Shown: positions 1-14,128, numbered from the stretch's first letter. The stretch is 64,000 nucleotides of DNA from Bacillota bacterium (GCA_030019365.1 JASEFA010000004.1:35262-99261); one strand, 5' to 3'. Numbers and translations: made by a program. The notes: generated by a model from the letters alone, not told the origin.

Positions 1-288
1 GCGTGGGAGACGCTGGAGTGGCTCAGGAGCGCGATTAACGCCGCCTGGGAGAGGAGACACGAGCTGTCACCGGCCTGCCCGGACCGGCGGGCACCTGGCG
101 CCCTGGAGGTGTGGAGGCTGCTGCCGCGCACCAACTGCCGGCGGTGCGGGGAGCTTACCTGCATGGCGTTCGCCGCGAGGCTGGTCATGGGGGAGCAGCG
201 GCTCTCGGGCTGCCCCGCCCTGGGGGAGGCCGGGTACGCCTCCGCCCGGGAGGCCCTGGAGGAACTGGTGGGTGAGGGTGCGTGGTGA
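1..288 (+). CDS. 3' end of a gene (partial at window edge) encoding a putative Fe-S cluster domain protein (PF04060-like CxxCGxxxC motif)
   Basis: Frame-3 translation reads ...RLLPRTNCRRCGELTCMAFAARLVMGEQRLSGCPALGE... and ends at TGA 286-288. This is clearly paralogous to the LLPRSNCGRCGEPACLAFAAKVASGERGARDCPVL segment of ORF 10892..11842. The motif resembles the N-terminal 4Fe-4S domain of corrinoid Fe-S protein / RnfB-type proteins (established knowledge, not searched). Confidence 0.45.
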   Translation, partial: AWETLEWLRSAINAAWERRHELSPACPDRRAPGALEVWRLLPRTNCRRCGELTCMAFAARLVMGEQRLSGCPALGEAGYASAREALEELVGEGAW

Positions 289-1075
289 AGGGGCCCGGGG
301 GAGGAGGGCCGTGGGGACCATGCCGCGAGCCGGATCCCGGGGGGCGGGAGCCTGGCGCCGGGTCGAGGAGATGCTGGCCGGGGACGGACCGGTGGTCGTG
401 AGCCTGGCCCCCTCTTACGTGGCGGCGTTCGAGGCCTCTCCCGGGCAGGTGGTGGCGGCGCTGCGGTCGCTGGGTTTCCGGGTGGTGGAAGAGACCGCCT
501 CGGTGCTGGGGGAGATGATCAGGCGGCGGGAGGAGATGGCGCGGGAGGCGGTCCCGGTCCTTTCGGGTTCGTGCCCGGTGGTAAGGCGCCTGATCGCCGG
601 GGAGTTCCCGTGGCTGCTTCCCCGGGTCGAGCCGGCTTCCGCCATGGGGCTTCACCTCGCCCGGCTCAGGTACCGGTACCCGGGTGCGCGTGCGGTCTTC
701 CTGGGGCCGTGCGAGGCCAAGCGCCTGCTGCCCGAGCCCGTGCAGCCGGACGCGGTGCTCACCTTCCGGGAAGTGGCGTCCTGGTGGTACGCCAGGGGAA
801 TCGACCCCGGGCGGTGCGAGCCCTCGGTGCCCGACCGCACGGCGGACGCCCTGGCCCGTATCTCGGTGGCCGTGGTTCACGCAAGTGGGCTGGAGGAATG
901 CCGCCGGATGCTTTCCCGGGTCAGCGCCGGTCCCTGGGAGGGACTGCCCTACCTGGAGATCACCGCCTGCCCCGGCGGGTGCCTGAACGGGCCGGGGATG
1001 CCGCCGGCGGACGCAGGGGAGCGCCGGCAGAAGGCAGTGCAGTACGCCATGGAGGCGGAGTTGTGCCTCCGCTAA
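272..1075 (+). CDS. [FeFe]-hydrogenase large-subunit C-terminal (H-cluster-like) domain protein; more likely start is ATG at about 320
   Basis: ORF-track protein contains FLGPCEAKRLL (like the MPCxxKxxE L2 motif) and EITACPGGCLNGPGMP (like the ExMACxGGCxxGGGQP L3 motif), plus a degenerate L1 (SGSCPVV). It overlaps the upstream Fe-S-domain gene by 17 nt in another frame, so the two may be one gene broken by a frameshift. Confidence 0.55.
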   Translation: MRVRGEGARGRRAVGTMPRAGSRGAGAWRRVEEMLAGDGPVVVSLAPSYVAAFEASPGQVVAALRSLGFRVVEETASVLGEMIRRREEMAREAVPVLSGSCPVVRRLIAGEFPWLLPRVEPASAMGLHLARLRYRYPGARAVFLGPCEAKRLLPEPVQPDAVLTFREVASWWYARGIDPGRCEPSVPDRTADALARISVAVVHASGLEECRRMLSRVSAGPWEGLPYLEITACPGGCLNGPGMPPADAGERRQKAVQYAMEAELCLR

Positions 1076-1093
1076 GCCGGCGGGAGGTGTGAG

Positions 1094-1372
1094 GTGTTGG
1101 CGGTAGCAAGGCTCAATGTCGAGCTGGGAGGGGGCCTCGGGCGGCTGGTGGGCAAGGAGAGCGTGGAAGTGGAGCTGGACCTTCCCGCGCGCAGGGAGGA
1201 GGTGATCTCCGCCCTGGCGGAGCAGGTACCGGAGTTGTCGCGCCTGCTGGGCACGGGGGAAGCGGCGAGGTCCCTGGTGGCCGTGAGCGTGGGGGGCGTG
1301 GTGCTGCGCGAAGGGCAGGAGGTCGGCCCCGGGGACTCCGTGTCGGTGTTCATGGCCTTTGCCGGAGGGTGA
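1094..1372 (+). CDS. MoaD/ThiS-family small sulfur-carrier protein
   Basis: 92-aa protein ending ...VFMAFAGG followed directly by a stop. The C-terminal Gly-Gly is the hallmark of MoaD/ThiS beta-grasp carriers. Its stop overlaps the next gene by 4 nt. Confidence 0.55.
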   Translation: MLAVARLNVELGGGLGRLVGKESVEVELDLPARREEVISALAEQVPELSRLLGTGEAARSLVAVSVGGVVLREGQEVGPGDSVSVFMAFAGG

Positions 1373-1878
1373 GGGGGGAGAGCGTGATACCGGGAGTGCG
1401 CCTGGTGGTGGTGGGGGGCGTGGAGGTGGGCCTCATCGGCCTGGACGAGGCCTTCGCGGAGCTCGAGGCGGCCGGGATCGTTGACCCCGAGGGACGCAAG
1501 GCTTTCCTGCTCTCCCGCGTCAAGGAGAAGAACTACGTGCCTGGGCGCAGGGAGGTGGCCTACGCGGAGGCGCTGCTCGAGGAGTACCTGGTGTGGAAGG
1601 GGGAGCGGCCGCCGCGGAAGAGTGCGGTCCCCAAGGTGAAGGTGCTGGGGCCGGGATGCCCCAACTGCCAGGCGCTGGAGCGCCTGGTGCTGGACGTCCT
1701 GGGCGAGCTGGGGGTGGGGGTTGACTTCGAGCACGTGCGCGACCCGCGGGAGATAGGGCGGTTCGGGGTGTTCGCCTCGCCCGCGCTGGCGGTGGGGGAC
1801 CGCCTGCTCGTGTCGGGGCGGGTGCCGCGCCGGGAGGAACTGAAGAGGATGCTGCAGGAGGCCCTGGAGTCGCGCTGA
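1369..1878 (+). CDS. Two-domain protein with C-terminal thioredoxin-fold redox-active disulfide domain (CPNC; TM0996/MTH895-like); N-terminal domain unassigned
   Basis: C-terminal ~80 aa KVKVLGPGCPNCQALERLV...FASPALAVGDRLLVSGRVP aligns with the stand-alone thioredoxin-like ORF 6499..6735 (MKIEVLGPGCQKCQALLKNV...). Likely start is GTG ~1384 after GAGGGGGGAGAG. It is translationally coupled to the MoaD-like gene. Confidence 0.5.
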   Translation: MRGESVIPGVRLVVVGGVEVGLIGLDEAFAELEAAGIVDPEGRKAFLLSRVKEKNYVPGRREVAYAEALLEEYLVWKGERPPRKSAVPKVKVLGPGCPNCQALERLVLDVLGELGVGVDFEHVRDPREIGRFGVFASPALAVGDRLLVSGRVPRREELKRMLQEALESR

Positions 1879-2008
1879 GGGATCCTAACCCGGCACGTCC
1901 CGCAGCTACCGCGGCCCGGTACTGGCCTGTCTCTGGCGTCACACCTGACGGCGAAGGGTTCAGGGTACTACCGGCGCATCACCCGATGACACGGGCATCG
2001 GCAGAAGG

Positions 2009-2901
2009 TCAGCGCAGCGCCTCCAGCACCAGCCCGGTGGCCACCGCTACCAGGAAGACGGTGAGGGCGAAGGTCGCTACTGTTCTTTTCTTGAAGAGGG
2101 AACCCAGCAGGGCGAGCTCGGGGATGCTGGCCCCCGCCCCCCGATGAGCAGGGCGACCACAGCCCCCAGGCTCATGCCCTTGGAGGCGAGCACCGCCCCG
2201 ATGGGGATGATAGTCTCGGCGCGGATGTACATGGGGACTCCGAGAGCAGCCGCCACCAGTATGGCGAAGGGATTGTGCGGTCCGGCCAGCCTGACGACGA
2301 GCTCCTGGGGCACGAATCCGTAGATGAACGCTCCGACCGCAGCGCCGACGAGGAGGTAGGGGAGCACCTGGCGGAACAGGCTCAGCGCGAACGCCAGGGC
2401 GGCGGCCAGGGCGCCGGGGGCAGGGCGCGACCCGGTCCCCTGCTCGTCGTCCCTCACGACCCTCACCCGCTTGACGTCGGCGGCGAGCCCCGCACGTTCC
2501 CAGAGGCGGCCCGAGATTACGCTGAGGGGGAAGACGAGGGCGGTGTAGGCGGCCGCGGTGGCCGGGCCCAGAATGGTGGCCATCATGGTGAGGATGACCG
2601 GGTTGAGGAGGGGTGAGGCGATGAGGAAGGCGCTGGCGGCGCCGAAGGGGACGCCCGCCCCCAGCATGCCCGCCAGGATGGGGATGGTGGAGCAGGAGCA
2701 GAAAGGCGTGACGGCTCCGAACGCCGCCGTGAGCACCGTGGCCACCCAGGCGTTCCTCCTGCCCAGGACGCTCTGGACCCTCTCGGGGGGAAGGAAGTGT
2801 GTGACGAGGCCCACCAGGAAGGTGACGGCGAGGAACAGTACCACCAGTTCGCCGGTGATGACGAGAAACCACCGGCCTGCCGCTGCCAGCGTGGATGTCA
2901 T
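2009..2901 (-). CDS. DUF318/PF03773-family permease (ArsP-like, CSCSTIP motif) with an apparent frameshift near 2130 in a C/G homopolymer run
   Basis: ORF 2077..2901 carries the permease body (TPFCSCSTIPILAGML, multiple TM segments) but ends ...LIGGRGPASPSSPCWVPSSRKEQ. The overlapping frame (ORF 2009..2872) supplies a plausible hydrophobic C-terminus ...ASIPELALLGSLFKKRTVATFALTVFLVAVATGLVLEALR. The switch falls in ctggcccccgccccccgatgag (~2125-2146). It is a paralog of ORF 6818..7999. Confidence 0.6.
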
Positions 2902-2928
2902 TTGTCGGGGCCCCCCGTCAGCGGAGTC

Positions 2929-3114
2929 TCAGCTGTCCTTCTCCTTCGGGTCGTCGGCCTGTCCGGCGCGCCCGGCGCCGGAGTCCTTCTGCTCCTTTGG
3001 CGCCTCCTCGGGTTCCTCGACGATGCGGACTCCGCAGCAGCAGGACCCGCCGCCGCCCAGGAGGCGCCGCCACAATCCTTGGTTACCCTTTGACTTCCCG
3101 GGCAAATCCGGCAT
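2929..3114 (-). CDS. Small Gly/Cys-rich protein with consecutive CCC triplet (GGGGSCCCG), unknown function
   Basis: 61-aa ORF with an excellent RBS (GGAGGTG, 7 nt, ATG). Its stop lies 26 nt before the permease start, and it sits exactly between padR and the permease on the same strand. It shares the Gly-flanked CCC motif with ORF 12410..12601. Confidence 0.45.
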   Translation of the reverse strand: MPDLPGKSKGNQGLWRRLLGGGGSCCCGVRIVEEPEEAPKEQKDSGAGRAGQADDPKEKDS

Positions 3115-3547
3115 CCACTTTCACCTCCACCGTCTCCCGTTCACCCTCGAGCGCCCGCTGCACGAGGGGTACCACCTCCGCCCAGGCCTGTGCCGCCGCC
3201 CGGTACGCCTGCTCCCCCCGCGGGGTGAGGCGGTACACCCGCCGCCGGCGCGCCCCGGTGAAGTCGGGCCGGCTTTCCAGGTAACCCTCCCGCTCCATCT
3301 CGTCCAGGAGGGGGTAGACCGTGGCCAGGGTGGGGGTGCAGCAACCGGAGGTCAGGGTGCTGAGCTCCCGTACCGCCGCGTAGGCGTGGCGGGGGGCGCG
3401 GTGGAGCACCATGAGGAGGAAGAACCGGGACAGGCCCAGGTTTATCTGGTGTTTCCAAAACTCCTTGCTGGTGAGCTCCGGCACCACAGCTTGCCCCCCG
3501 ATATATAGGTATCCTACGCATCCCTTATACCACCGGCGACAGGGCAT
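3083..3547 (-). CDS. PadR-family transcriptional regulator with Cys-containing N-terminal extension
   Basis: Winged-helix core ...LSRFFLLMVLHRAPRHAYAAVRELSTLTSGCCTPTLATVYPLLDEMEREGYLESRPDFTGARRRRVYRLTPRGEQ is typical PadR. The ~35-aa N-terminal extension MPCRRWYKGC... suggests the start may differ. Confidence 0.7.
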   Translation of the reverse strand: MPCRRWYKGCVGYLYIGGQAVVPELTSKEFWKHQINLGLSRFFLLMVLHRAPRHAYAAVRELSTLTSGCCTPTLATVYPLLDEMEREGYLESRPDFTGARRRRVYRLTPRGEQAYRAAAQAWAEVVPLVQRALEGERETVEVKVDAGFAREVKG

Positions 3548-3644
3548 GTCAAGGCGGCTGCACAGTAGATGTACAGTAGAGACCGTCGTTGAGAGTGCCT
3601 GCAGGGTGCCGGGCGGCGGGGTTCTGCATGACGGCCGACACCGG

Positions 3645-4334
3645 CTATGCTGACCAGGCGTAGTAAAGGCCGAAGCCGATGAGCACTAAGCCGGCCGCCT
3701 TTTCGAGCCATGAGGTCCAGCGGGAGATGAGGGGCACCTGTTTTAGGGCTGCGGTGAAGGTGGCGGCCAGTGTGAGGGGCGCGCCCCTGCCCAATCCGTA
3801 GGCGAATAGCAGGCCGGTACCGAAGGCCAGCTTGCCCTGGGCCATGACAAGGGTGAGGATGGCTAGCAGGACCGGCGTTGCGCACTGGGAGCCGGCCACG
3901 CCGAGCACGAGGCCGAGGAAGAAAGCTCCCGCGAGGCCGCCGGCGGGGAAGCGCCTGAGCGAGCGCAATCCGACCGACGGCAGGGACACCTGCACTAGGC
4001 CGGCGAGGTGCAGGCCGGCGAGGATGCTGACGGCAGCCGCCAGGTAGTAGAGGACGGTTCGGGAAAAGCCCAGCAGGCCGCCCAGGGTGGCTGCGGCAAC
4101 CCCCATCATGGTGAAAGTGACCGACGTGCCCAGGGTGAAGGAAACGCCCAGCCAGAACCCCTTCCACCCCGCCGCTTCGCGCTGCCCCGTGGTATACGCC
4201 ACGAGGAGAGGGATGATGGAGAGGTTGCATGGACCCAGGCTGGTGACGAGGCCGCCGAAGAACGCGAGGGCGAAAGCAACGGCCGCATGGCCGCCGGTGA
4301 GGTGGGCAAGGTGGCGGGCCAGGGTGGCCTCCAT
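3645..4334 (-). CDS. ccdA: Cytochrome c-type biogenesis protein CcdA (DsbD-like transmembrane thiol-disulfide transporter)
   Basis: Polytopic membrane protein with the two conserved Cys in TM helices (LGPCNLSIIPLL and GSQCATPVLL). It has the size and hydropathy of CcdA. Confidence 0.75.
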   Translation of the reverse strand: MEATLARHLAHLTGGHAAVAFALAFFGGLVTSLGPCNLSIIPLLVAYTTGQREAAGWKGFWLGVSFTLGTSVTFTMMGVAAATLGGLLGFSRTVLYYLAAAVSILAGLHLAGLVQVSLPSVGLRSLRRFPAGGLAGAFFLGLVLGVAGSQCATPVLLAILTLVMAQGKLAFGTGLLFAYGLGRGAPLTLAATFTAALKQVPLISRWTSWLEKAAGLVLIGFGLYYAWSA

Positions 4335-4706
4335 CTAGCTGCCTCCCGCGAGTCGGGTCAGGGCAGCGCGCATCTCTTCAACAGGTATGACGCCGACAGC
4401 CCTGGCTACCACCTGTCCGGATTTATCGAGCAGGAACGTGGTGGGAATGAACTGAACGCCGTACTGCCGGACCAGATCCTCCTCCGTGCGGTCTTCCACG
4501 TTGACGGAGACGAACGCCACCCTGCCCTCGAACTCCGGGCGCAGGCGGTCAAACACTGCCTCCATCTCCTTGCACGGCTCGCAGTTGGAAGAGTGGAAGA
4601 GCAGCCATACCGGGAGGCCGCGCTGCCTGGCTGCGGCGAGCGCCGCCCGGGACGGACTGGATGGGCTTTCGGTTTCGCCCCGGTGAGCCAGCTGTTTTCC
4701 CACCAC
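4335..4706 (-). CDS. Thioredoxin-fold thiol:disulfide oxidoreductase (TlpA/ResA-like), possibly membrane-anchored
   Basis: WLLFHSSNCEPCKEMEAVF... contains a CxxC active site. The frame stays open upstream through a hydrophobic stretch (LLVPLALLLALTAIVV) without an obvious canonical start, so the N-terminus is uncertain. It is immediately downstream of ccdA, a classic pair. Confidence 0.6.
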   Translation of the reverse strand: MVGKQLAHRGETESPSSPSRAALAAARQRGLPVWLLFHSSNCEPCKEMEAVFDRLRPEFEGRVAFVSVNVEDRTEEDLVRQYGVQFIPTTFLLDKSGQVVARAVGVIPVEEMRAALTRLAGGS

Positions 4707-4853
4707 GATGGCGGTTAGGGCGAGGAGAAGGGCGAGCGGGACGAGGAGGCGTCCCGCTCTTGACCTGGCGAAGCTGCTGCCCGGCAGGTGGCATCACCCC
4801 TCTTACTTGGAAGCGGCTTCCCGGTGATCCCGGTGGGCACCCGAGGTGGCGCC

Positions 4854-5999
4854 TCACGAGCGCCACGCCGGGGTGACGTCCGGGCGGTAGTAGCGGCGGT
4901 GGAACGCGAGGGCCACGTTGACCAGCGCCAGCATCACCGGGACCTCTATGAGGGGACCGATGACGGCGGCGAAGGCCTGGCCGGAGTTGAGCCCGAACAC
5001 CGCCACCGCCACCGCGATGGCCAGCTCGAAGTTGTTGCTGGCGGCGGTGAAGGAGAGGCTGGTCGTCTGCGGGTAGTTCACCCCGAGGCGCATGCTGAGG
5101 AAGAAAGACGCCAGGAACATGACGACGAAATAGACGATGAGGGGTATGGCTATCCTGACCACATCCAGGGGCAGCCTGACGATGTATCCGCCCTTGAGGG
5201 AGAACATGACCACGATGGTGAAGAGGAGGGCTATGAGGGCCAAGGGGCTAATGCGGGGGACGAACCGCTCCTCGTACCATTTCTCGCCCTTGAGGGGTGC
5301 GAGGATGGTCCTGGTGAGGAAGCCGGCCACGAAGGGGATGCCCAGGTAAATGGCAACGCTCTTCGCCACCTCGCCGATGGTGACGTGCACCACGGCACCT
5401 TTCAGTCCGAAGACGGTGGGGAGGATGGTAATGAACACGTAGCTATAGACCGAGTAGAAGAACACCTGGAAAAGGGAGTTGAATGCCACCAGGGCGGCGG
5501 CGTACTCGCTATCGCCCCGCGCCAGGGCGTTCCACACGATGACCATGGCGATGCAGCGGGCCAGGCCGATGAGGATGAGCCCCACCATGTATTCGGGGTA
5601 GTTGCGCAAAAAAGTGATGGCCAGGATGAACATCAGGATGGGGCCGATGATCCAGTTCTGGACGAGAGACAGGGCGAGCACCCGGGTGTTGCGGAACACC
5701 TTGCCCAGTTCACCGTACCTGACCTTGGCCAGGGGAGGGTACATCATGACGATGAGGCCGACGGCGATGGGGATAGAGGTGGTGCCGACTGACAGCCTGT
5801 CAAGCAGGTCAGCCACCCCGGGGAACACGTACCCCAACGCCACCCCGGCGGCCATGGCCAGGAGTATCCACAAGGTGAGCAGGCGGTCGAGCAGAGAGAG
5901 CCCGATGGTACGGTTCTCGGCCAACGGAGCTGCCACTCCTTTCCGAGTGTGCTTCTCCCGCCGGTCTGGCGGGCTATCACTCATTGAGCATATCTTCAT
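4854..5999 (-). CDS. acr3: ACR3-family arsenite efflux transporter
   Basis: [34 protein letters not shown] (conserved ACR3 Cys) and [20 protein letters not shown] are diagnostic ACR3 motifs. It has ~10 TM segments. The start is probably a few codons inside the ORF (MSDSPPD...). Confidence 0.85.
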
Positions 6000-6008
6000 C
6001 CTCTTCCT

Positions 6009-6024
6009 GTGTCAAGTGCTTGAC
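6009..6024. promoter_or_regulatory. Near-perfect palindrome TGTCAAGTGCTTGACA in the acr3 / arsR divergent intergenic region; candidate ArsR/SmtB operator
   Basis: 7-bp inverted arms TGTCAAG / CTTGACA separated by 2 nt. It sits between divergently transcribed acr3 and arsR. Confidence 0.4.
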
Positions 6025-6046
6025 AGGTTCCTCTCAGTAGAGTATC

Positions 6047-6457
6047 TTGAAGCTAAGCATATATTCCAAGATGGTGGTGGCTTCTGTGACGGAGGGTTTA
6101 CTCGAGCAGATGGCGGCGGTGCTGAGAGCCCTGGGGCACCCGGCTAGGTTGCGGATCGTGGAGTTCCTGGTCGATGGCGACCTGTGCTCGGGGAGGGACT
6201 GCTCGGGGGAAAAGTGCGTCTGCGAGATCATCCCTGCCCTGGGCATGGAGCAATCGAGCGTGTCCAAGCACCTGGCCATCCTGCGGGACCGGGGTATCGT
6301 CAACTTCAGGCGGGAAGGGACGCGGACGTTTTACTCGCTTGCCGACCCCCGGGTGCTGGAGATACTCAGGCTGGCCCGGGAGGTGTGTATCGGCCACCTG
6401 AGCCGGGCGGAGAAGGTGCTTGCCGAGGCGCGGCGTGTTGACGGTAGCGGATTATGA
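6047..6457 (+). CDS. arsR: ArsR/SmtB-family metalloregulator (arsenite-type CVC site)
   Basis: LGHPARLRIVEFL...EKCVCEIIPALGMEQSSVSKHLAILRDRGIV is an ArsR helix-turn-helix with the ELCVCDL-type As(III)-binding CVC motif. Extra Cys are present (DLCSGRDCSG). A later start at ATG ~6070 is possible. Confidence 0.8.
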   Translation: MKLSIYSKMVVASVTEGLLEQMAAVLRALGHPARLRIVEFLVDGDLCSGRDCSGEKCVCEIIPALGMEQSSVSKHLAILRDRGIVNFRREGTRTFYSLADPRVLEILRLAREVCIGHLSRAEKVLAEARRVDGSGL

Positions 6458-6498
6458 TGATATATTCATAACGCTAATCAAGGACAGGAGGTGCGGCG

Positions 6499-6735
6499 GT
6501 GAAGATCGAGGTTCTGGGACCGGGCTGCCAGAAGTGCCAGGCGCTGCTGAAGAACGTGACGGAGGCCCTGGCCGAGAGCGGCCGGGAGGCGGAGGTCGTG
6601 AAGGTCGAGGACGTGTTCGAGATCATGCAGCGGGGCGTCAACCACACCCCGGCCATAATCATCGACGGCGAGCTGAAGCTCCAGGGCCGGGTGGCCACGG
6701 TGCGGGAGATCACAGGCTGGATTACAGGAAAGTAA
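6499..6735 (+). CDS. Small thioredoxin-family redox-active disulfide protein (TM0996/MTH895-like)
   Basis: 78 aa, MKIEVLGPGCQKCQALLKNV... has a CxxC active site. It starts at GTG after AGGAGGTG. This family is classically encoded beside DUF318 permeases. Confidence 0.7.
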   Translation: MKIEVLGPGCQKCQALLKNVTEALAESGREAEVVKVEDVFEIMQRGVNHTPAIIIDGELKLQGRVATVREITGWITGK

Positions 6736-6817
6736 GGAGGTAATGGCCACCTGCGGGTGGCCTTTTACCGGCCCGCGATTATGAACGGTTTCTCATAGGG
6801 GAAAGAGGGCGGAGATC

Positions 6818-7999
6818 GTGGCAGAGTTACGCAAGTTCTTCTGGCTGCTCGGGGCATTCCTTGCCGCCTACTTCGTGCCGTTCGGGCACCCGCGGGTGTC
6901 AGGGGCCATCCTGGAAGCCTTCCACATGCTGCAGGAGTACGCGCGCCAGCACGTGCTCCTGTGCCTGGTGCCGGCCCTGTTCATCGCCGGGGCGATCGCG
7001 AACTTCGTGTCGCAGGCTTCGGTGATCAAGTACTTCAGCGGGCAGGCCAAAAAGTGGCTTTCGTACTCGGTGGCCTCGGTCTCGGGGACCATCCTGGCGG
7101 TATGCTCGTGCACGGTGCTGCCCTTGTTTGCGGGGATATACCAGCGGGGGGCGGGGCTGGGTCCTGCCATAGCGTTCCTTTACTCGGGGCCGGCCATCAA
7201 CATCCTGGCCATCATCCTGACGGCCAGGGTGCTGGGGTGGAAGCTGGGGCTGGCGAGGGCGCTCGGTGCGGTGTTCTTTTCGGCGGTGATAGGGCTGATC
7301 ATGGCGTACATTTACCGCCACGAGGAGAAGCAGCGCACGGAGGCGGTGTCGCAGCGGGTAGCGGAAGCGATGAGGCAGAAAGAGGCCCGGAGCGGGGCGC
7401 AGAACCTTTTGTACTTCGCGGCCATGGTCGGTATCCTGGTGTTCGCCAACTGGGGGAAGCCGGCGCAGCCGGTGGGGTTCTGGAACGCGGTGTTCGAGGT
7501 CAAGTGGTACATTACGGGAGCGCTCTTGGTCCTCCTCGCCTATATGCTGGCCAGGTGGTTCCGCCGGGCCGAGCTTTCTTCCTGGGTGAGCGCCACCTGG
7601 GGTTTTGCCGGGCAGATCATACCGCTTCTTTTTGCGGGTGTGCTGGCCGCGGGGGTTCTCATGGGCCGGCCGGGCACGGATGCCGGGCTGATTCCGTCGC
7701 GGTGGATCGAGGCTGCGGTGGGCGGCAACTCCCTGCGGGCGAACCTGCTTGCTTCGGTGGCCGGGGCGCTGATGTACTTCGCCACGTTGACGGAGGTGCC
7801 CATCCTGCAGGGGCTGTTAGGGTCGGGGATGGGGCAGGGTCCCGCCCTGGCCTTGCTTCTGGCGGGCCCGGCTCTTAGCCTGCCCAACATGCTGGTGATC
7901 CGCAGCGTGATCGGCACGAAGAAGATGCTGACGTACGTGGGCCTGGTGGCGGTGATGGCCACGCTCACGGGGATGATCTTCGGGGCGATAGTGGGCTAG
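6818..7999 (+). CDS. DUF318/PF03773-family permease (ArsP-like)
   Basis: 393 aa, polytopic, with ILAVCSCTVLPLFAG (CSC motif) and GWKLGLARALGAV. It is a paralog of the permease at 2009..2901. Confidence 0.7.
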   Translation: MAELRKFFWLLGAFLAAYFVPFGHPRVSGAILEAFHMLQEYARQHVLLCLVPALFIAGAIANFVSQASVIKYFSGQAKKWLSYSVASVSGTILAVCSCTVLPLFAGIYQRGAGLGPAIAFLYSGPAINILAIILTARVLGWKLGLARALGAVFFSAVIGLIMAYIYRHEEKQRTEAVSQRVAEAMRQKEARSGAQNLLYFAAMVGILVFANWGKPAQPVGFWNAVFEVKWYITGALLVLLAYMLARWFRRAELSSWVSATWGFAGQIIPLLFAGVLAAGVLMGRPGTDAGLIPSRWIEAAVGGNSLRANLLASVAGALMYFATLTEVPILQGLLGSGMGQGPALALLLAGPALSLPNMLVIRSVIGTKKMLTYVGLVAVMATLTGMIFGAIVG

Positions 8000-8024
8000 C
8001 CCGGGTGAGCGGGAGGCGAGGCGG

Positions 8025-8504
8025 GTGGCGGAGATCGTGTACCTGGGCCTGGCCGGGGTGCTGCTTCTGGTTTCATGGAGGAAGGACCGGGGCACCACCC
8101 GGCGGGCACTGTCCATCACCCTGGCCACGTTCAAGAAGACCATGCCCTTCATCCTCCTCGTATTCGTGCTGATGGGCGTAGCTCAGGCTTACGTGCCACG
8201 TTCGGTCATCGCTGCCGTCCTGGGTGGTCACAGTGGACCCCTGGCCGTCCTCTACGGGGAGGCGGTGGGCTCGGTGGCCCTCATCCAGCCTTCTGCCGTT
8301 TTCCCCTTTGCCGGATATCTTCTGGCCAACGGGGCGAGCATAGGGGCCCTGGCGGGGTTCATCCTCACGGCCATACTGATCGGCGTCTCCACGCTGCCCA
8401 TCGAGGTGAGCATGCTGGGGTTGCGGTTCACGGTGGCGAGGAACGTGCTGACGTTTGTGGCGGTCTTCCTGGTGGCGCTGGCGATGGGGGCGATCCTGTC
8501 ATGA
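8025..8504 (+). CDS. Half-size permease-like membrane protein (split DUF318-type permease, first gene of pair)
   Basis: 159 aa, ~4-5 TM segments, ...MLGLRFTVARNVLTF... It is a paralog of ORF 12729..13208 and related to the C-terminal repeat of the fused permeases. Confidence 0.5.
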   Translation: MAEIVYLGLAGVLLLVSWRKDRGTTRRALSITLATFKKTMPFILLVFVLMGVAQAYVPRSVIAAVLGGHSGPLAVLYGEAVGSVALIQPSAVFPFAGYLLANGASIGALAGFILTAILIGVSTLPIEVSMLGLRFTVARNVLTFVAVFLVALAMGAILS

Positions 8505-9025
8505 AGAAGCTTGACTCTTCCCTGGCCAGTCTGGTGGCGGCGGGCGTGCTGGCGGGATCGGTCTGGCTGGTTTCGCCGGCACGGGGCGCGGTGGTGGTGC
8601 ATGTGGCCTGGAATGCTCTTGCCATCTCGTGGCTCATCATCCTGAGCGTGTTCGTTTACATCGGGCTCTTACAGGCCTGGGTGAAGCCGGCGGCCATGGC
8701 CAGGTGGCTGGGTAGGAGCTCGGGGGCGAAGGGATTTGCCCTGGCTTCCACGCTGGGCATATTCCTGGGCGGGTCGCTGGTGACGGTGTTCCCCCTGCTG
8801 GCAGCCTTGCGGCAGAAGGGGGCCAGGGTCGGTGTGCTGGCCGCGCTGGTGACGGCTTGGGGAGGGAAGGCTCCGCTGCTGCCGCTGGAAGGCCGGTTCC
8901 TGGGGTGGCAGTTCGCCCTGGTGCGCATGGTCATGGTGATGCTGATGGCAGCTCTTGTGGGGGTGGGAGTGGAAAGGCTTGTGGGAGAGCGGCAGGAAGG
9001 TGGCACCAGCAGCGTGCCCGGGTGA
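8501..9025 (+). CDS. Half-size permease-like membrane protein (split DUF318-type permease, second gene of pair)
   Basis: Starts at ATG 8501 overlapping the upstream stop (ATGA). Sequence VMKKLDSSLASLVAAGVLAG...EGRFLGWQFALVRMVMVML is a paralog of ORF 13205..13780. It lies inside the longer track ORF 8075..9025. Confidence 0.5.
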   Translation: MKKLDSSLASLVAAGVLAGSVWLVSPARGAVVVHVAWNALAISWLIILSVFVYIGLLQAWVKPAAMARWLGRSSGAKGFALASTLGIFLGGSLVTVFPLLAALRQKGARVGVLAALVTAWGGKAPLLPLEGRFLGWQFALVRMVMVMLMAALVGVGVERLVGERQEGGTSSVPG

Positions 9026-9109
9026 CGCGCGAGATGCAGTCACCCAAGGGCAGACGGCCGGCAGGGGGACAGAGAAAGCAGTAGTTCTCACAGGGGAGGA
9101 GATAAGGAA

Positions 9110-9586
9110 ATGACGCAGCCCATGGAATGGCAGCCCGGGATGGTCACGCACGAAAACGCGATCTTCGTGTGCTTCGGCGGCCTTTCGAACACGGGGTACA
9201 TCACCGCCCTGGCGGGGATGGAAGCGGTGCGGAGGGTGGGTCTCAAGAAGGCGGCCATCTTCTGCCTGGCGGGACTTCCGGTGGAAGTGAAGATGGTGCT
9301 GGCCAAGGCGAAGGCGGCGAAAAAGATCATCACGGTGGATGGCTGTGCCAACAACTGCGCGAAGAAGCTGGTCGAGGCGGCGGGCTTTCCCATCACGAGG
9401 TCAATCACCCTGGCCGTGGACCTGGGGGTGAAGAAAGTGCCGCTGCACAGGGATCTGGACGGCGAGCCCAAGGATGTGATGGAGTACATCTCCCAGGAGG
9501 ACGTGGCCAGGACGGTCGAGGCCATACTGGCAGCGATTGAAGGCGAGGAGCCTGCCGCGGCCTCCGCATCCGGGGGTGAAGCGTGA
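9110..9586 (+). CDS. DGC-domain protein (putative zinc-binding)
   Basis: ...KIITVDGCANNCAKKLVEAAG... matches the DGC motif/cysteine pattern of PF08859-like proteins. RBS is GGGGAGGAG. Confidence 0.55.
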   Translation: MTQPMEWQPGMVTHENAIFVCFGGLSNTGYITALAGMEAVRRVGLKKAAIFCLAGLPVEVKMVLAKAKAAKKIITVDGCANNCAKKLVEAAGFPITRSITLAVDLGVKKVPLHRDLDGEPKDVMEYISQEDVARTVEAILAAIEGEEPAAASASGGEA

Positions 9587-10404
9587 TGCTGGCTGGGCCT
9601 GCCGGTGAACGCGCAGAGTGCGGGGGCGTCCTGCGGGATCTGTACGGCCACGTCATGTCTTCCCTGCGGCCGAAGACCTTTCCCTTCGGGGTCAAGCTTT
9701 ACCGCAGCCTGGACGAGCGACCGCCTGGGCTTTTGTCCCCGCGGCACCCCATGAACGTGTGCCAGGTGACAGCTCTGGTCCGCTACTACGGGCGGTGCAT
9801 GTACGCCACCTGGCAGGACATGGCGTGTGTGGTCGGCGCGGTGGCCCTGGGCATGATGGAGCCGCCGGAAAACATGCGGTCGGGGAAGATCGCCGAGATG
9901 CTGCACGCGGACCTCGATTCCGCGCGCCGCTTCACGGAACTGGTTCCGCGCATTCCGGCGGGGACTGTCAAGGCTTTTGCCGCGGCGCCGCTCGACCGGT
10001 TGACGTTTGAACCCGATATGGTGGTGATGTACGCGAACACGGCCCAAGCGGTGAGGGTGGTACAGGCCTATCTTTACCGGCGGGGAGGACGGGCGGCCTT
10101 CAGCACGGGTGGCGAATACAGCCTGTGTGCGGACATCATCGCGGAGACGTACACCAAGCACGACTTCGCTCTCGCCATCCCCTGTTTCGGGGACCGCAAG
10201 ACGGCCCTGGCGCAGGACGAGGAGCTGACGGTGGCCTTCCCTGCCGACATGGCCCAGGAGATACTGGACGGCCTGGTGGGCACGGCGAAGACGGCTGCCT
10301 ACCCGACGCCCGTGGACATAGGCTTTCCCCAGATGCCCGATTACACCCTGACGGATTGGGCGGTAGCCTTCCGTCGGGGGAAGGTGGGTTCCGGGCCCGG
10401 TTAG
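9583..10404 (+). CDS. DUF169 (COG2043-like) family protein
   Basis: 273 aa with overall resemblance to DUF169/ArCR proteins (recalled, not searched). It overlaps the DGC gene by 4 nt. Confidence 0.45.
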   Translation: MMLAGPAGERAECGGVLRDLYGHVMSSLRPKTFPFGVKLYRSLDERPPGLLSPRHPMNVCQVTALVRYYGRCMYATWQDMACVVGAVALGMMEPPENMRSGKIAEMLHADLDSARRFTELVPRIPAGTVKAFAAAPLDRLTFEPDMVVMYANTAQAVRVVQAYLYRRGGRAAFSTGGEYSLCADIIAETYTKHDFALAIPCFGDRKTALAQDEELTVAFPADMAQEILDGLVGTAKTAAYPTPVDIGFPQMPDYTLTDWAVAFRRGKVGSGPG

Positions 10405-10455
10405 GGGGGAGGTTGCCGGGAGACCTCGGGGGGCAATCGGTCTTCAGTGGCGGGC

Positions 10456-10481
10456 GGGAGGCACGGCCAGTTGTGCCTCCC
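10456..10481 (+). terminator. Perfect 9-bp stem-loop GGGAGGCAC-N8-GTGCCTCCC without U-tract
   Basis: Seen directly between the DUF169 gene and the MvhD-like gene. GC-rich hairpin; no poly-T follows. Confidence 0.25.
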
Positions 10482-10529
10482 GGATCGCTATGGGGTCTGA
10501 GGTGCGCTGTGGCGGGAGGAGGCGATACC

Positions 10530-10892
10530 TTGCGGAGGCCGCGGGTCTTGCTGTGCGTGTGCCGGGGGTGTCCCGGTTTTGAGCGGGTCGATGCCTGGAC
10601 CCTGGTTAATCGCCTTCGAGACAACCCTGACGTGGAATTCGCGGTGGCGCACCCCCAGCTTTGCGGTGACGATGGGCTGCGTTTCCTGGCCGACCTGGTT
10701 CGGCCGGCCGTCACGTACCTCGTGGGAGCGTGCGATCCCGCCCTGCAGCGCAAGATGTTGAAGGAAACCTTTACCGCTGCCGGTGTGAGCTTTGACGGGC
10801 AGGTGGTGCCCCTCGACCTGCGCAACATGACGACCGAAGAAGCTGCGGAGAAAGTGGCCGAGGCGGTGAGGGCGCTCAGGGCCGGACAATAG
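10530..10892 (+). CDS. MvhD/FlpD-like Cys-rich small protein (methyl-viologen-reducing hydrogenase delta subunit family)
   Basis: Internal TTG start after GGAGGAGG gives MRRPRVLLCVCRGCPGFERVDAWTLVNRLRDNPDVEFAVAHPQLCGDDG...LVGACDP. The Cys spacing is PF02662-like. It lies inside track ORF 10125..10892. Confidence 0.4.
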   Translation: MRRPRVLLCVCRGCPGFERVDAWTLVNRLRDNPDVEFAVAHPQLCGDDGLRFLADLVRPAVTYLVGACDPALQRKMLKETFTAAGVSFDGQVVPLDLRNMTTEEAAEKVAEAVRALRAGQ

Positions 10893-11842: not shown

Positions 11843-11914
11843 GGTGGGACATGGTGCAGCGCTCCGGGGTGTTCCGCCGTAGTCACCGCGTCCTGGTGGG
11901 TTGCAGCAATGGTG

Positions 11915-11969
11915 TTGACGGCGGTGCCGGGACCGGGTATAATCGTGCTGATAAGTGTACATTGCACTT
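11915..11969 (+). promoter_or_regulatory. Consensus sigma-70-type promoter TTGACG-17 bp-TATAAT followed by imperfect palindrome AAGTGtacattgCACTT (candidate PadR operator) upstream of padR
   Basis: Hexamers at ~11915-11920 and ~11938-11943 with a 17-nt spacer. Palindrome at ~11953-11969. RBS GGAGGG and ATG 11987 follow. Confidence 0.45.
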
Positions 11970-11986
11970 AGGAGGGTGAGCCACTG

Positions 11987-12382
11987 ATGTGCGGCGAGCA
12001 TGGCCGCGGTTTCCGCGCGGGCGCCTGCGGCTGTCATGACCGGCGGGGGGAGAGGTTCCTGGAAGCGTGGCTGCTTCTGCTTTTGAAGAGTGGCCCGTCC
12101 CATGGTTACCAGCTGGTGGAACGCCTGGGCCAGGTGCTGGGCGGAAGTGGGTTTCCGGACCCCGGTACGGTGTACAGGAACCTGCGGCGAATGGAGGAGG
12201 AAGGGCTGGTGAGTTCGAGCTGGGACCTCCAGGACAGCGGCCCGCCGCGCCGTCTGTATCGGCTGACCGAGCAGGGCGAGGAGTTGCTCCACGTGTGGGC
12301 TGCGAACGTGGAACATTACCGGGCCCGGCTTGACCGGTTCCTCGGGATGTACCGCGAGCTTGCGGGCGATTCCCGGGGCTAG
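11987..12382 (+). CDS. PadR-family transcriptional regulator with Cys-rich N-terminal extension (MCGEHGRGFRAGACGCH)
   Basis: Core ...WLLLLLKSGPSHGYQLVERLGQVLGGSGFPDPGTVYRNLRRMEEEGLVSSSWDLQDSGPPRRLYRLTEQGEELL is typical PadR. The N-terminal extension resembles the N-terminus of the next small protein. Confidence 0.7.
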   Translation: MCGEHGRGFRAGACGCHDRRGERFLEAWLLLLLKSGPSHGYQLVERLGQVLGGSGFPDPGTVYRNLRRMEEEGLVSSSWDLQDSGPPRRLYRLTEQGEELLHVWAANVEHYRARLDRFLGMYRELAGDSRG

Positions 12383-12409
12383 GCCCGGTTCAAAAAGGAG
12401 GAGAGAGGT

Positions 12410-12601
12410 ATGTGTGGTAGCAGGCAGCACGGCTGGCACGAGTTCGCCGGCGCCGGAGGGTGTTGTTGTGGCGGTGGCATGCGCCGCCGGTTCTTCAGCA
12501 AGGAAGAGCGGTTGGCCAGGTTGCGCGACTACCTGGAAGAGCTGAAAGCGGAAGCCCAGCAGGTGGAAAAAGTGATCCGCGAACTCGAGTCCGAAAAGTG
12601 A
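12410..12601 (+). CDS. Small protein with Gly-flanked CCC triplet (AGAGGCCCGGG) and charged coiled-coil-like tail, unknown function
   Basis: 63 aa with a strong RBS (AAAAAGGAGGAGAGAGGT ATG). It lies between padR and the split permease pair. It shares the motif with ORF 2929..3114. Confidence 0.5.
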   Translation: MCGSRQHGWHEFAGAGGCCCGGGMRRRFFSKEERLARLRDYLEELKAEAQQVEKVIRELESEK

Positions 12602-12728
12602 AAACCGGCCTCGAACTCACCGGCGGCATCCGGGCGGTCCTGGCGGCCGCCCGGAGCTTAATGCCGTTGGGTGCCGGGGTTGCCGTATTGCCACGGCAGG
12701 TTGGCGGCGGAGGGAGTGGAGTGGTAGC

Positions 12729-13208
12729 GTGGCGTTCAACCTGGCGCTGTATGCTGTGTCGGCAGTGGTGGTCCTTGTTTCCGCGCTGCGGGACCGGGGT
12801 AAGACACGCCAGGCGCTGGCCGTTGCCTGGCGTTCGTTTTGCCGGGTTGCCCCTTCCATGCTGGGCATCATGGGGCTCATCGGGCTGGTGCTGACTCTGA
12901 CTCCGGCGAGCACGATAGTCACCCTGTTTAACAACCAGAACGTTTGGGGCATCTTGCTGGTTGCCGCCGTCGGGGCGGTGACGCTGATCCCCGGGATCAT
13001 CGCCTATCCCCTAGCGGGTTCCCTGGTGCGCCAGGGAGCGGGGGTGGTGCCGATCGCGGCGTTCATGACCACTCTCATGATGGTCGGCGTGGTAACCGCT
13101 CCCCTGGAGAGCCACTATTTCGGCCGGCGTTTCGCGCTCCTCCGTAACGGCCTCAGTTTCATTGCCGCGTTGGCCATAGCGGCCGCCATGGGGGTGGTGC
13201 TGGGGTGA
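12729..13208 (+). CDS. Half-size permease-like membrane protein (split DUF318-type permease, first gene of pair)
   Basis: Paralog of 8025..8504 (...HYFGRRFALLRNGLSFIAALAIAAAMGVVL). It starts at GTG with GGAGGGAGTGGAGTGG upstream. Confidence 0.5.
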   Translation: MAFNLALYAVSAVVVLVSALRDRGKTRQALAVAWRSFCRVAPSMLGIMGLIGLVLTLTPASTIVTLFNNQNVWGILLVAAVGAVTLIPGIIAYPLAGSLVRQGAGVVPIAAFMTTLMMVGVVTAPLESHYFGRRFALLRNGLSFIAALAIAAAMGVVLG

Positions 13209-13780
13209 GCCCTGGCGGTCGATTGGGGACGAAGCTGGCGAGGCTGCGGCCGTACGCCCTCCTCATTCTCACGCTTGTGGGCGATCTGGCCCTGGGTGTG
13301 GTGAGGCCCGGGCTGGGGTGGCAGGCCGTGCGGACGTCCGCTTCTTACCTGTTGGAAATGCTGCTGGTGCTGCCCCCCATCTTCGTGCTGATCGGCATGC
13401 TGGAGGTGTGGGTTCCCCGGCAGACCATCGTGCGCAACGTGGGCCCCGGGTCCGGACTGCGCGGGCTGGCACTCTCTGTTTTGACCGGGTCTGCTGCTGC
13501 CGGGCCGCTCTACGGGGCCTTTCCCGTGGCCGAGTCTTTGCTCAGGAAGGGTTGTTCGGTATTCAACGCGTGCGTGCTGCTCTGCACCTGGGCGGCGGTG
13601 AAAATCCCCATGATCATGATGGAGGTGAAGTTCCTGGGCTGGCGGTTTTCCCTGGCCCGGCTGGCCTTCACGCTGCCGGCCATCGTGCTCATAAGCTGGC
13701 TGGTGGATCGCTTCACGCCTCGCCTGGGTGGGTTGTGCGGAGAAGACCGGCCTGGGGTGGGTCGGGAGATGCCGCGGTGA
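13205..13780 (+). CDS. Half-size permease-like membrane protein (split DUF318-type permease, second gene of pair)
   Basis: 4-nt overlap with the upstream gene. ...KFLGWRFSLARLAFTLPAIVLISWL is a paralog of 8501..9025. Confidence 0.5.
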   Translation: MSPGGRLGTKLARLRPYALLILTLVGDLALGVVRPGLGWQAVRTSASYLLEMLLVLPPIFVLIGMLEVWVPRQTIVRNVGPGSGLRGLALSVLTGSAAAGPLYGAFPVAESLLRKGCSVFNACVLLCTWAAVKIPMIMMEVKFLGWRFSLARLAFTLPAIVLISWLVDRFTPRLGGLCGEDRPGVGREMPR

Positions 13781-13813
13781 CGTCCGGGGTGCGGGGTTAA
13801 GGAGGCAGGGGCA

Positions 13814-14128
13814 ATGCACGTTGCCGACATACTGGCGGAAAGGGAATTCTCACCTCAAGACAAGGTGCGCAAGGAGATCTACCGTTCCGGAGCCGCCAAG
13901 GTCCTTTTGATCTGCTTTGAGTCCGGTCAGGCACTGGAACCCTGCGTCATGGGTGCCGAGGTAGTGTTCTACGTGGTAGAGGGAACCGGTCGCATCAGGG
14001 TGGAATCGACCACAGTGGACGTGCGCCAGGGTTCCCTCGTGGTCGTTCCTGCCGGGCTGGAGCGCCAGATCGAGGCGTGCTCCCCCATGGTGGTGCTGGC
14101 CCTGCAGGCCCTTGGCCAGGGGGGATAG
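13814..14128 (+). CDS. Cupin-domain protein
   Basis: 104 aa with a two-motif cupin-like pattern (VLLICFESGQALEPCVMGAEVVFYVVEGTGRIRVE...LVVVPAGLE). Confidence 0.6.
   Translation: MHVADILAEREFSPQDKVRKEIYRSGAAKVLLICFESGQALEPCVMGAEVVFYVVEGTGRIRVESTTVDVRQGSLVVVPAGLERQIEACSPMVVLALQALGQGG

Follow-up and report, generated by a model that had tools for sequence, protein, structure and literature searches.

Resistance operons for arsenic and soft metals combine a sensor with an exporter and, in some cases, a chaperone. The established sensors are of the ArsR/SmtB, MerR and CsoR types, lately joined by MarR_ars. ArsD, which serves the ArsA ATPase, is to our knowledge the only arsenic chaperone known. 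The subject of this report is a module of three genes in a 64,000-nucleotide stretch of a Bacillota genome (GCA_030019365.1, JASEFA010000004.1:35262-99261). This whole stretch is called the window, and its G+C content is 67%. The module (copy A) encodes a PadR-family regulator (PadR-A), a small protein with three consecutive cysteines (small protein A) and an ArsP_1-family permease (permease A). An earlier reading of the sequence, here the original prediction, had paired it with a second unit of the window, copy B, which encodes PadR-B, small protein B and a split permease. The three-gene operon is real and conserved across phyla, and neither the operon nor its PadR subfamily nor the family of small protein A (family A) was found in the curated libraries and the literature that were searched.

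For the permease, the closest described system is ArsP of Campylobacter jejuni, a member of the Organo-Arsenical Exporter family in TCDB. The two are alike in their Pfam domain (ArsP_1), in a Cys-x-Cys motif of the TPFCSCS type and in a neighbourhood of arsenic genes. Both cysteines of this motif are reportedly needed in the C. jejuni protein. ArsP exports methylarsenite, MAs(III), and trivalent roxarsone, Rox(III) (PMC6205960). Unlike C. jejuni ArsP, permease A stands under a PadR rather than an ArsR regulator, has a dedicated CCC protein and is frameshifted; the two are likened by family and motif. The nearest curated models are those of the SO_0444 Cu/Zn efflux permease and SaoE, with which the CSC motif and a nearby thioredoxin-like partner of the MTH895 type are held in common. 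The SAO system (SaoE/SaoT/SaoC) also has an accessory protein with a CC motif beside its permease (bioRxiv 10.1101/2022.07.06.499078). SaoC, however, a secreted lipoprotein of about 158 amino acids (aa) with CC-COOH at its C-terminus, has neither sequence nor location in common with the cytosolic 52-89-aa CC(C)-x-VRI protein described here, and no counterpart of the SAO ABC importer is found at the module.

For the small protein, an analogy is found in the exporter ZntA, whose CCCDGAC motif binds metal. In E. coli ZntA the motif is part of NDCCCDGAC in the flexible N-terminus (sequence verified). Thus a CCC run again lies in a disordered, Gly/acidic-rich segment of a soft-metal exporter, whereas ZntA is a P-type ATPase with the motif in the same chain and without sequence relationship, and here the cysteines are found in a loop insertion (loci L021-L023, below) or in a separate protein. 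The logic of ArsR/ArsD and of MarR_ars is also similar, with a winged-helix repressor whose cysteines sense trivalent metalloids and, in ArsD, a small thiol-rich hand-over protein. MarR_ars senses As(III)/Sb(III) via the vicinal Cys36-Cys37 plus Cys157 (bioRxiv 10.1101/2021.08.12.456183). In the present module, by contrast, the fold is that of an LmrR-like PadR with its Cys pair at the alpha2-alpha3 turn, and small protein A has no similarity to ArsD and would partner a secondary permease, not the ArsA ATPase. The nickel-responsive PadR-family repressor NfeR (YqjI) of E. coli offers a parallel in its Cys-dependent regulation; its Cys/His region is an N-terminal extension of its own, whereas PadR-A lacks such an extension and has the pair inside the helix-turn-helix (HTH). 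Consecutive Cys codons upstream of operon genes are also found in the polycysteine short open reading frames (ORFs) of mycobacteria (bioRxiv 10.1101/834739). Small ORF A differs from these attenuators in that it is led by a Shine-Dalgarno sequence, is the second gene and is under protein-level selection; it is not a leaderless first ORF, and no RNA duplex masking the RBS of the next gene was found.

The features of both units are listed in Table 1. As originally predicted, padR-A, a 61-codon small ORF (3114..2929) and the permease gene (2901..2009) follow each other in this order and in one direction on the minus strand, and Pfam matches to PadR and ArsP_1 agree with the order. The small ORF overlaps the end of padR-A by 32 nucleotides (nt), and its stop codon is 27 nt ahead of the permease start (ATG 2901). 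The strong ribosome-binding site (RBS) predicted for it is also present (GGAGGTGA, 6 nt before the ATG), and both RBS and start are kept in the orthologs. Three consecutive cysteines are present in 4 of the 518 window ORFs of at least 40 aa; two of these four are small ORFs A and B, each of which lies directly 3' of a padR gene.

Table 1. Positions of copy A, copy B and neighbouring features in the window
Feature	Position	Strand	Remarks
permease A	2009..2901	-	ArsP_1 family, single-chain form, broken by 1-nt deletion; island permease unit 2009-2901, frameshifted
frameshift site	2140..2141	-	one base (A in L004) missing, where CATCGG meets GGGGCGGGGG
codons Cys68-Ser69-Cys70 in TPFCSCSTIP	2692..2700	-	read from sequence; kept in all orthologs and in Cupriavidus
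small protein A	2929..3114	-	61 aa; RBS, orthologs, purifying selection
codons TGC TGC TGC, Cys25-27 of small protein A	3034..3042	-	CCC kept in every ortholog
padR-A	3083..3487	-	134 aa, GTG start, LmrR-like single-domain PadR; Pfam and ortholog N-termini
codons Cys49-Cys50	3338..3343	-	vicinal pair in G-C-C-x-P-T motif; invariant in homologs
candidate PadR-A operator, palindrome CCTATATATCGG	3498..3509		between -10 box and RBS; 11/12 match to CCGATATATCGG
-10 box TATAAG, padR-A promoter	3524..3529	-	kept in L010, L017
-35 box TTGACA, padR-A promoter	3547..3552	-	identical hexamer and 17-nt spacing in L010, L017
11-nt tandem duplication CTACTGTACAT / CTACTGTGCAG	3558..3579	-	holds the motif of the original prediction; not conserved
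copy B	11915..13780	+	promoter 11915..11943, palindrome 11953..11969
padR-B	11987..12382	+	first gene of copy B
small protein B	12410..12601	+	63 aa; purifying selection, in-frame indels
split permease B	12729..13208 and 13205..13780	+	ArsP_1, two ORFs; island permease unit 12729-13780, split
island permease unit	6818-7999		intact
island permease unit	8025-8504 and about 8500-9025		split
MTH895/ArsE-like gene (second)	1369-1878		island gene
CcdA gene	3645-4334		island gene
thioredoxin gene	4335-4706		island gene
DGC-domain gene	9110-9586		island gene
DUF169 gene	9583-10404		island gene

Relatives of the module (loci with L numbers) come from a search for PadR-A homologs, from the contigs around them and from metagenome scans. 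Every PadR-A ortholog at 64-85% identity (L010/L011, L012, L013-L015 and L017) is followed by an overlapping or abutting CCC ORF of 52-62 codons and then by an intact ArsP_1 permease of 297-302 aa. The same genes are thus found in four diverged relatives of the Bacillota type, and the PadR / small CCC protein / ArsP_1-permease module of the original prediction is a real, conserved unit. In L018-L023, whose PadRs are 43-49% identical to PadR-A and have the same SGCCTPTLGTIYPIL motif, there is no small ORF and the permease gene begins 32 nt after padR. A scan of the GTDB REPRESENTATIVE genomes with the PadR-A alignment gave one unrelated PadR only (L016, with neither GCC nor permease), so that the Bacillota-type family is absent from the GTDB species representatives.

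Another form of the cassette was found by a search of plasmid proteins on the conjugative plasmid pRK1-4 of Cupriavidus basilensis DSM 11853, where it lies between a relaxase gene and an IS1380 transposase. Its PadR is 41% identical to PadR-A (E = 1e-33) and carries TQGCCSPTEGTIYPVL, and its permease (297 aa, with TPFCSCSTIP) is 49% identical to that of L011 (E = 1e-83). The small gene is found 12 nt after the permease stop and encodes an 89-aa 'hypothetical protein' with three CCA[VP]RIE repeats and the N-terminus KKGFIARLLGKQDESDCCAVRIEEVPE, including KKGFIARLLG...DCCAVRIEEVPE. By hhalign this protein aligns with family A over 34 columns at 47% identity and 67% probability. The clusters of the pRK1-4 PadR and permease, within which identity is 90% or more, contain 'MULTISPECIES [Pseudomonadota]' entries and also members named from Pseudomonas aeruginosa; the PadR cluster also extends to Burkholderia cenocepacia and Stenotrophomonas, and the permease cluster to Stenotrophomonas, Klebsiella, Serratia and Acinetobacter baumannii. 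No further match was found in plasmids for small protein B, for the Cupriavidus small protein or for the Cupriavidus cassette DNA, and the latter has none in E. coli genomes.

In Roseomonas mucosa plasmids a GCC-PadR (42% identical) is followed by a flavoprotein with CC pairs near both ends, and then by an MFS transporter. The best NCBIfam match of the flavoprotein is ArsO and that of the transporter ArsK (242 of 400 bits), both below threshold. On plasmid pTT14-4 (L031, 3959-7129) the GCC-PadR ends in GACQC, the flavoprotein (484 aa) starts with MSSCCS and has ACC and PCC near its C-terminus, and the ArsK-like transporter lies next to chrA. CC tags on several proteins under the control of a GCC-PadR may be a general theme.

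Small protein A consists of a basic N-terminus, a short amphipathic helix, a Gly-rich linker, CCC-G-VRIV and an acidic tail. Its orthologs are found in L011, L012, L013 and L017. The alignment of the five proteins shows K.K, (LW/IF).R(L/I), a Gly/Ser linker, CCC, G(V/I)(R/E)(I/V)V and EEP, followed by a fast-evolving acidic tail. The Cys codons show synonymous TGC/TGT changes among the orthologs, and L012 has CCCC. In the three closer sequences the ratio of nonsynonymous to synonymous differences per site (pN/pS) is 0.18-0.26 up to VRIV, with pS about 0.5-0.6, and the indels are all multiples of three, in frame. Small ORF A is a real gene, and a chance ORF is excluded. It has no Pfam or NCBIfam family, and its only exact database match is its own GenBank entry, hypothetical protein QME70_08050 of the Bacillota metagenome-assembled genome. 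An exact-sequence look-up of small proteins A and B gave no match; the relatives came through homology searches. AlphaFold2 predicts only a helix at residues 12-19 (mean pLDDT, the predicted local distance difference test, of 62) and no C-terminal helix.

Two further observations concern this gene. Between the window and L004, a locus 94% identical to it, there is a single substitution in the 246 nt of 2915-3160 (the padR end and the whole small ORF), compared with 5.9% in the remaining alignment (Poisson P about 8e-6). The missing synonymous changes are beyond what protein-level selection alone would give; a recent recombination event, or selection on the nucleotide sequence itself, would explain them. 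Moreover, the segment after the cysteines of the small proteins (VRIVEE / VRIEEV; window 3016-3030) is similar to VKRVRVVRDDE, with which the central loop of the permease begins (2440-2480), and also to the ends of CC-rich permease loops (..VRIPFK). This resemblance hints that the small protein was derived from, or pairs with, the permease loop.

PadR-A belongs to the Pfam PadR family (PF03551; 58.1 bits, E = 8.8e-16, gathering cut-off 27), and among the 31 PadR-type matches to it in solved structures the best are LmrR and its variants. Its G-C-C, just ahead of PTLATVYPLL, is invariant in seven of seven homologs at 59-93% identity and is also present in the PadRs at 41-49% identity of L018-L023, Cupriavidus and Roseomonas. 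It is absent from three inspected lower-scoring plasmid matches (from Ancylobacter, Deinococcus and Pantoea), which lie in unrelated contexts without the module and served as negative controls. Judged from these alignments, the GCC pair is the mark of the PadR subfamily. Cys49-Cys50 aligns to the alpha2-alpha3 turn of the solved LmrR structures, before the recognition helix. LmrR-type PadRs bind organic compounds at a pocket with Trp96, and the equivalent Trp is invariant in the PadR-A homologs.

The start of padR-A differs from the original prediction, which had placed it at ATG 3547. Gene calls in the near-identical L002 and L003 and the N-termini of all orthologs place it at GTG 3487 (134 aa), and ATG 3547 falls within the -35 box/spacer of the padR-A promoter. 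This promoter, TTGACA-17-TATAAG, is kept base for base where PadR identity is only 79-85%; the counterpart in L012 is TTGACG-17-TATCAG. It was read from the sequence, since a consensus scanner overlooked it because its -10 box ends in G. The palindrome at 3509..3498 is a candidate operator to which PadR-A may bind. It is AT-rich and the sole site of its kind in the window within one mismatch, and it is found in the diverged loci as CCGATATATCGG (L010), CCTATATATCGG (L017), TATATCGATATATCG (L012) and ATATATCGGGGCCCGATATAT (L013). It is also kept in L004 despite the deletion of the promoter there. This deletion (L004 800-975 versus window 3505-3880) joins a ccdA remnant straight onto the CCGATATATCGG palindrome and takes out the padR promoter and the thioredoxin/CcdA genes, so that padR of L004 must be read from upstream transcription.

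The original prediction had also pointed to CAGTAGATGTACAGTAG upstream of padR, at 3563..3579, as a sequence with a GTACAT core in common with the copy-B palindrome. The motif is indeed at this position; the common core is at chance level. For 120-nt regions, a shared 7-mer such as TGTACAT is found in 80% of dinucleotide-shuffled pairs and in 92% of random pairs of window segments, and GTACAT as a common operator core was rejected, being conserved among the orthologs of neither copy A nor copy B. The copy-A motif, CTACTGTACATCTACTG (3579..3563), is part of the 11-nt tandem duplication CTACTGTACAT/CTACTGTGCAG, found only in this lineage; at this site L010 has one unit, and L017 has three of a different 13-nt unit (CCTGTCGGCCGCC). 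Immediately 5' of the -35 box the sequence is especially prone to indels (window 3558-3579; L017 about 930-1000). In copy B, the consensus palindrome 3' of the -10 box is TGCAC-A-GTGCA. The window has a degenerate form of it, TGTACATTGCA; in place of GTACAT the orthologs read GCACAG, GCATAT, GCACAA or GCAAGG. Families A and B therefore each have their own conserved palindrome between -10 box and RBS, CCGATATATCGG-like in A and TGCAC-A-GTGCA-like in B.

Permease A belongs to Pfam ArsP_1 (PF03773; 151.1 bits, E = 4.9e-44, cut-off 32.3). After correction of the frame it is 297 aa long and, from end to end, shows 88% identity to the L011 permease, which is intact; it also has the ArsP-type Cys-x-Cys in VTPFCSCSTIP at residues 64-74. 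Its scores for the NCBIfam equivalogs SaoE (NF040736; 98.6 of 325 bits) and SO_0444 (NF033936; 95.9 of 300) are below the cut-offs, and so are those of the Cupriavidus permease (about 106 bits). The gene was predicted to be of the fused, single-chain form and frameshifted, and comparison with L004 and the intact orthologs bears out both: a 1-nt deletion at 2141/2140 breaks the frame. The deletion is common to the window, L002 and L003, which are independent assemblies, and is therefore not an assembly error; across these assemblies the gene is a pseudogene. More distant intact orthologs read on as ...LLIGGAGASIPEL..., and since they are in frame and the restored product is 88% identical to that of L011, the deletion is recent. 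L004 keeps this base and has another 1-nt deletion near window position 2759, so that the permease gene was struck twice in lineages 94% identical. This suggests repeated loss of the exporter with padR and the small gene intact. Programmed frameshifting at the G-run was considered and rejected: there is no X_XXY_YYZ heptamer with A or U in Y, the orthologs have the extra base, and L004 is broken elsewhere.

The permeases with and without a small protein differ in their cysteines. In each of the five that are accompanied by a small CC(C) protein, the two cysteines of CSC are the only ones, and the loop is about 35 residues long, GLAADVKRVRVVRDDE... Where such a partner is missing, in the three complete permeases of L021-L023 (PadRs 46-49% identical, GCC kept), there are 8-10 Cys per permease, with 3-4 CC pairs (SCCG, GCCS, ACCP, ACCS) in a central loop of about 105 residues that ends in ..VRIPFK. 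As loop CC pairs and small gene are distributed complementarily, the vicinal-Cys element is either built into the permease or a polypeptide of its own. This trade-off is the main reason why we place the small protein with the permease and not with the repressor.

The most probable reading of these features, to which we give about even odds, is that window 3552..2009 (minus strand) holds a self-regulated operon whose three genes serve to detoxify trivalent (organo)arsenicals or soft metals. A sigma-70-type promoter would drive padR-A, the small CCC gene and the ArsP-type permease gene, with the small gene translationally coupled to padR-A through the 32-nt overlap. PadR-A, as an LmrR-like repressor, would sit on the palindrome CCTATATATCGG between -10 box and RBS and would be released when a thiol-binding ligand occupies Cys49-Cys50, in the turn before the recognition helix. 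The likeliest ligand would be a trivalent (organo)arsenical or antimonite, and less likely a soft metal (Cu, Zn, Cd, Hg). The 61-aa protein, flexible and cytosolic, would capture the same ligand with the thiolate cluster of its CCC and present it to the permease, and the Cys-Ser-Cys site in TPFCSCSTIP would then serve its export. The small protein would thus be the free-standing equivalent of the CC-rich central loop of related permeases without a partner. The ligand, the binding of PadR-A to DNA and the hand-over to the permease are what we infer.

Arsenic-type genes are found beside the GCC-PadRs in three independent settings. In the window they are an SBF-family transporter (4854..5999), an ArsR regulator (6047..6457) and MTH895/ArsE-like thioredoxin proteins. 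In L012 the module is accompanied by two ArsR-family regulators, a low-molecular-weight phosphatase (ArsC type), an SBF-family transporter and a Thioredoxin_3 protein. The third setting is Roseomonas, with its sub-threshold ArsO-like and ArsK-like proteins. The SBF-family transporters of the window and L012 are presumably of the ACR3 type. The first 14 kb of the window (1-14200) form an island with four ArsP_1-type permease units, of which the intact one (6818-7999) follows the ArsR gene (6047-6457) and an MTH895/ArsE-like thioredoxin gene (6499-6735).

Copy B has the same layout, padR gene, small ORF and permease gene, as the original prediction saw; that the two units are duplicates is not demonstrable. 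PadR-A and PadR-B are 38% identical over 65 residues, and the permeases fall into different ArsP_1 subgroups, with the CSC motif in A only. The two small proteins have only a Gly-rich-CCCG stretch in common (hhalign, 65% probability over 17 columns), and a hidden Markov model (HMM) of the B family finds only GGxGxCCCG in family A, with 5-9 bits, too little to place small protein A in the B family. Modules A and B are thus alike in layout, and their small proteins appear to be without demonstrable common ancestry.

Small ORF B is also a real gene: pN/pS is 0.2-0.3 in each half, and its indels keep the frame. In every case the gene ahead of it encodes a PadR with a conserved N-terminal CGC(H/R) motif. 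In the PadR-B orthologs (window 11987-12060) this motif lies in a short N-terminal extension and is followed by RRGERFLEAW. The gene 3' of the pair varies and is an ArsP_1 permease (L007/L008), a Metal_resist/LTXXQ gene (L005) or a Polbeta/HepT pair (L006). A HMMER search gave 133 relatives of small protein B at E <= 1e-3 (at least 133 clusters at 50% identity). Those of up to 140 aa (n = 128) have a median length of 67.5 aa, and CC is present in 99 and CCC in 62 of them. Nearly all Cys of the family precede a conserved helix, F.RRF.(S/T)KEE...L..YL..L.AE...VE, and for small protein B AlphaFold2 predicts a disordered N-terminus followed by one confident helix (31-62). Neither Pfam nor NCBIfam has a model of the family. 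Pfam DUF5320 (PF17253), made up of small proteins with a Gly/Arg-rich N-terminal part and a C-terminal helix, is like small protein B in these respects, whereas family A has no C-terminal helix; membership was rejected, as DUF5320 gave no hit to small protein A or B at E <= 10 and weak hits in 2 of 41 relatives of small protein B (best E = 1.5e-4). One family member (P0111) is fused to an ArsR-type HTH, and in L024 the gene of another (P0032) is separated by 20 nt from a preceding VKOR gene, within a hydrogenase-maturation (hyp) cluster. The members are small, combine a Cys/His-rich N-terminus with a C-terminal helix and are associated with winged-helix regulators.

PadR-B is 28% identical to NfeR (E = 2e-10), and ...GQCCGG...RRQRFF of NfeR resembles GGCCCGG.MRRRFF of small protein B as well as the PadR-B N-terminus, which looks like the Cys/His-rich N-terminus of NfeR (...GQCCGG...RRQRFFGHGELRL) in miniature. 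For small protein B the resemblance is visible by eye and, owing to the biased composition, not significant by BLASTP or HMM. On the 3' side of copy B a cupin gene (13814-14128) and a radical SAM/SPASM gene (14340-15896) are found; both are absent from the copy-B loci with sequence past the module (L005-L008).

Several points weigh against an operon for arsenical or soft-metal export. The ligand is read from context and motif chemistry, and the nearest curated permease relatives (SO_0444 Cu/Zn efflux and SaoE), whose models are matched far below cut-off, are not arsenic-specific. There are no metal or arsenic genes beside the Cupriavidus cassette, whose small protein is linked to family A through 34 aligned columns and synteny, which makes it a putative homolog. 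Three adjacent Cys cannot easily all be ligands of one As(III) centre. As judged from its broken frame, the unit of the window is probably non-functional as an exporter, and the two independent frameshifts (window and L004) may mean that selection for export is relaxed in this lineage. Finally, the small gene of the Bacillota loci is coupled to padR, and a regulatory partner would fit this equally well. In that case the small CCC protein would be a co-sensor or anti-repressor, which binds PadR, adds thiolates and tunes derepression. The overlap of 1-32 nt between the small gene and the padR 3' end at all five Bacillota-type loci would lead to co-translation in fixed proportion, and in the copy-B family PadR and small protein stay paired while the downstream gene changes. 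A B-type domain occurs fused to an ArsR-type HTH (P0111), and in NfeR a Cys/His-rich N-terminal extension is part of the PadR chain itself (sequence verified). Evidence from the B family may not carry over to A, however, the homology of A and B being unproven. The GCC-PadRs of L018-L023 do without a small gene and CC pairs are found in the permease loop instead, and in Cupriavidus the small gene comes after the permease gene, not after padR. We consider a partner of the repressor unlikely.

The remaining explanations concern the chemistry or the level at which the cysteines act. In a module for thiol or redox stress (disulfide stress, reactive sulfur species or organic electrophiles), the vicinal Cys would be a redox or alkylation switch. 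Such a role, which we regard as decidedly unlikely, would suit the thioredoxin and CcdA genes immediately upstream on the same strand (4706..3645), the MTH895-type thioredoxin-like genes nearby, the invariant Trp equivalent to LmrR Trp96 and the distant B-type protein that follows a VKOR gene; yet Trx/CcdA are absent from L013-L015 and Cupriavidus, the recurrent neighbours are arsenic genes, and in characterised relatives of the permease group the CSC motif is tied to metal(loid) export. The small ORF might also be a cysteine-sensing leader, in which ribosomes pausing at CCC when Cys-tRNA is scarce control permease translation. For such a leader speak the 3-4 successive Cys codons ahead of a transporter gene and the mycobacterial precedent (bioRxiv 10.1101/834739), and UGCUGCUGC (3034-3042) is complementary to permease codons 6-8, GCAGCGGCA (2878-2886, Ala-Ala-Ala), at four of five loci (window, L011, L017 and, with wobble pairs, L012). 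The complementarity is missing in L013, though, and probably arises simply because the codons GCA (Ala) and UGC (Cys) are each other's reverse complement. Purifying selection on the non-Cys residues, a Shine-Dalgarno-led ORF that is second in the operon and not leaderless and first, and a spacing to the permease gene that is 21-27 nt at four of five loci, including the window, and 88 nt in L013 also speak against a leader, as do the Cupriavidus gene downstream of the permease and the lack of an RNA structure (fold z-score +0.43, alifold covariation term +1.96, no Rfam match). A leader of this kind is highly improbable. The least probable reading, to which we give hardly any weight, is that of a precursor of a modified, Cys-derived peptide exported by the permease. 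The protein is short, Cys-rich and adjoins a transporter gene, the three tandem repeats of the Cupriavidus version resemble multiple peptide cores, and a radical SAM/SPASM gene lies about 560 nt beyond copy B. At none of the A-type loci, however, does a conserved modifying enzyme accompany the module, the radical SAM gene is missing at other B loci, neither a peptidase nor a leader/core layout is seen, and CC pairs can belong to the permease itself.

If the operon has the proposed function in detoxification, it would add to the known resistance systems a PadR-type sensor with a vicinal Cys pair and a small thiol protein that serves a secondary permease. The trade-off between separate protein and permease loop would offer a testable handle on the route of substrates to ArsP-type transporters. 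Jointly, it is conceivable, at somewhat less than an even chance, that the GCC-PadRs are new thiol-switch sensors of trivalent metalloids or soft metals found across phyla, that the CC(C)-x-VRI protein is a delivery partner of ArsP-type permeases interchangeable with a loop, and that the whole is a mobile, unannotated resistance cassette. The reach of this finding is tempered by the dead permease of the present genome. The module nevertheless extends beyond the view of the original prediction, as a cross-phylum cassette with its own PadR subfamily and its own small-protein family. Database labels of its genes, also in Pseudomonas aeruginosa and other opportunists, read only 'PadR family regulator', 'permease' and 'hypothetical protein', and because they stay generic the cassette is unseen by current resistance-gene screens. 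If the proposed function is true, it would be a resistance determinant in bacteria of clinical relevance (Pseudomonas aeruginosa, Burkholderia, Stenotrophomonas, Klebsiella and Acinetobacter), carried by mobile elements.

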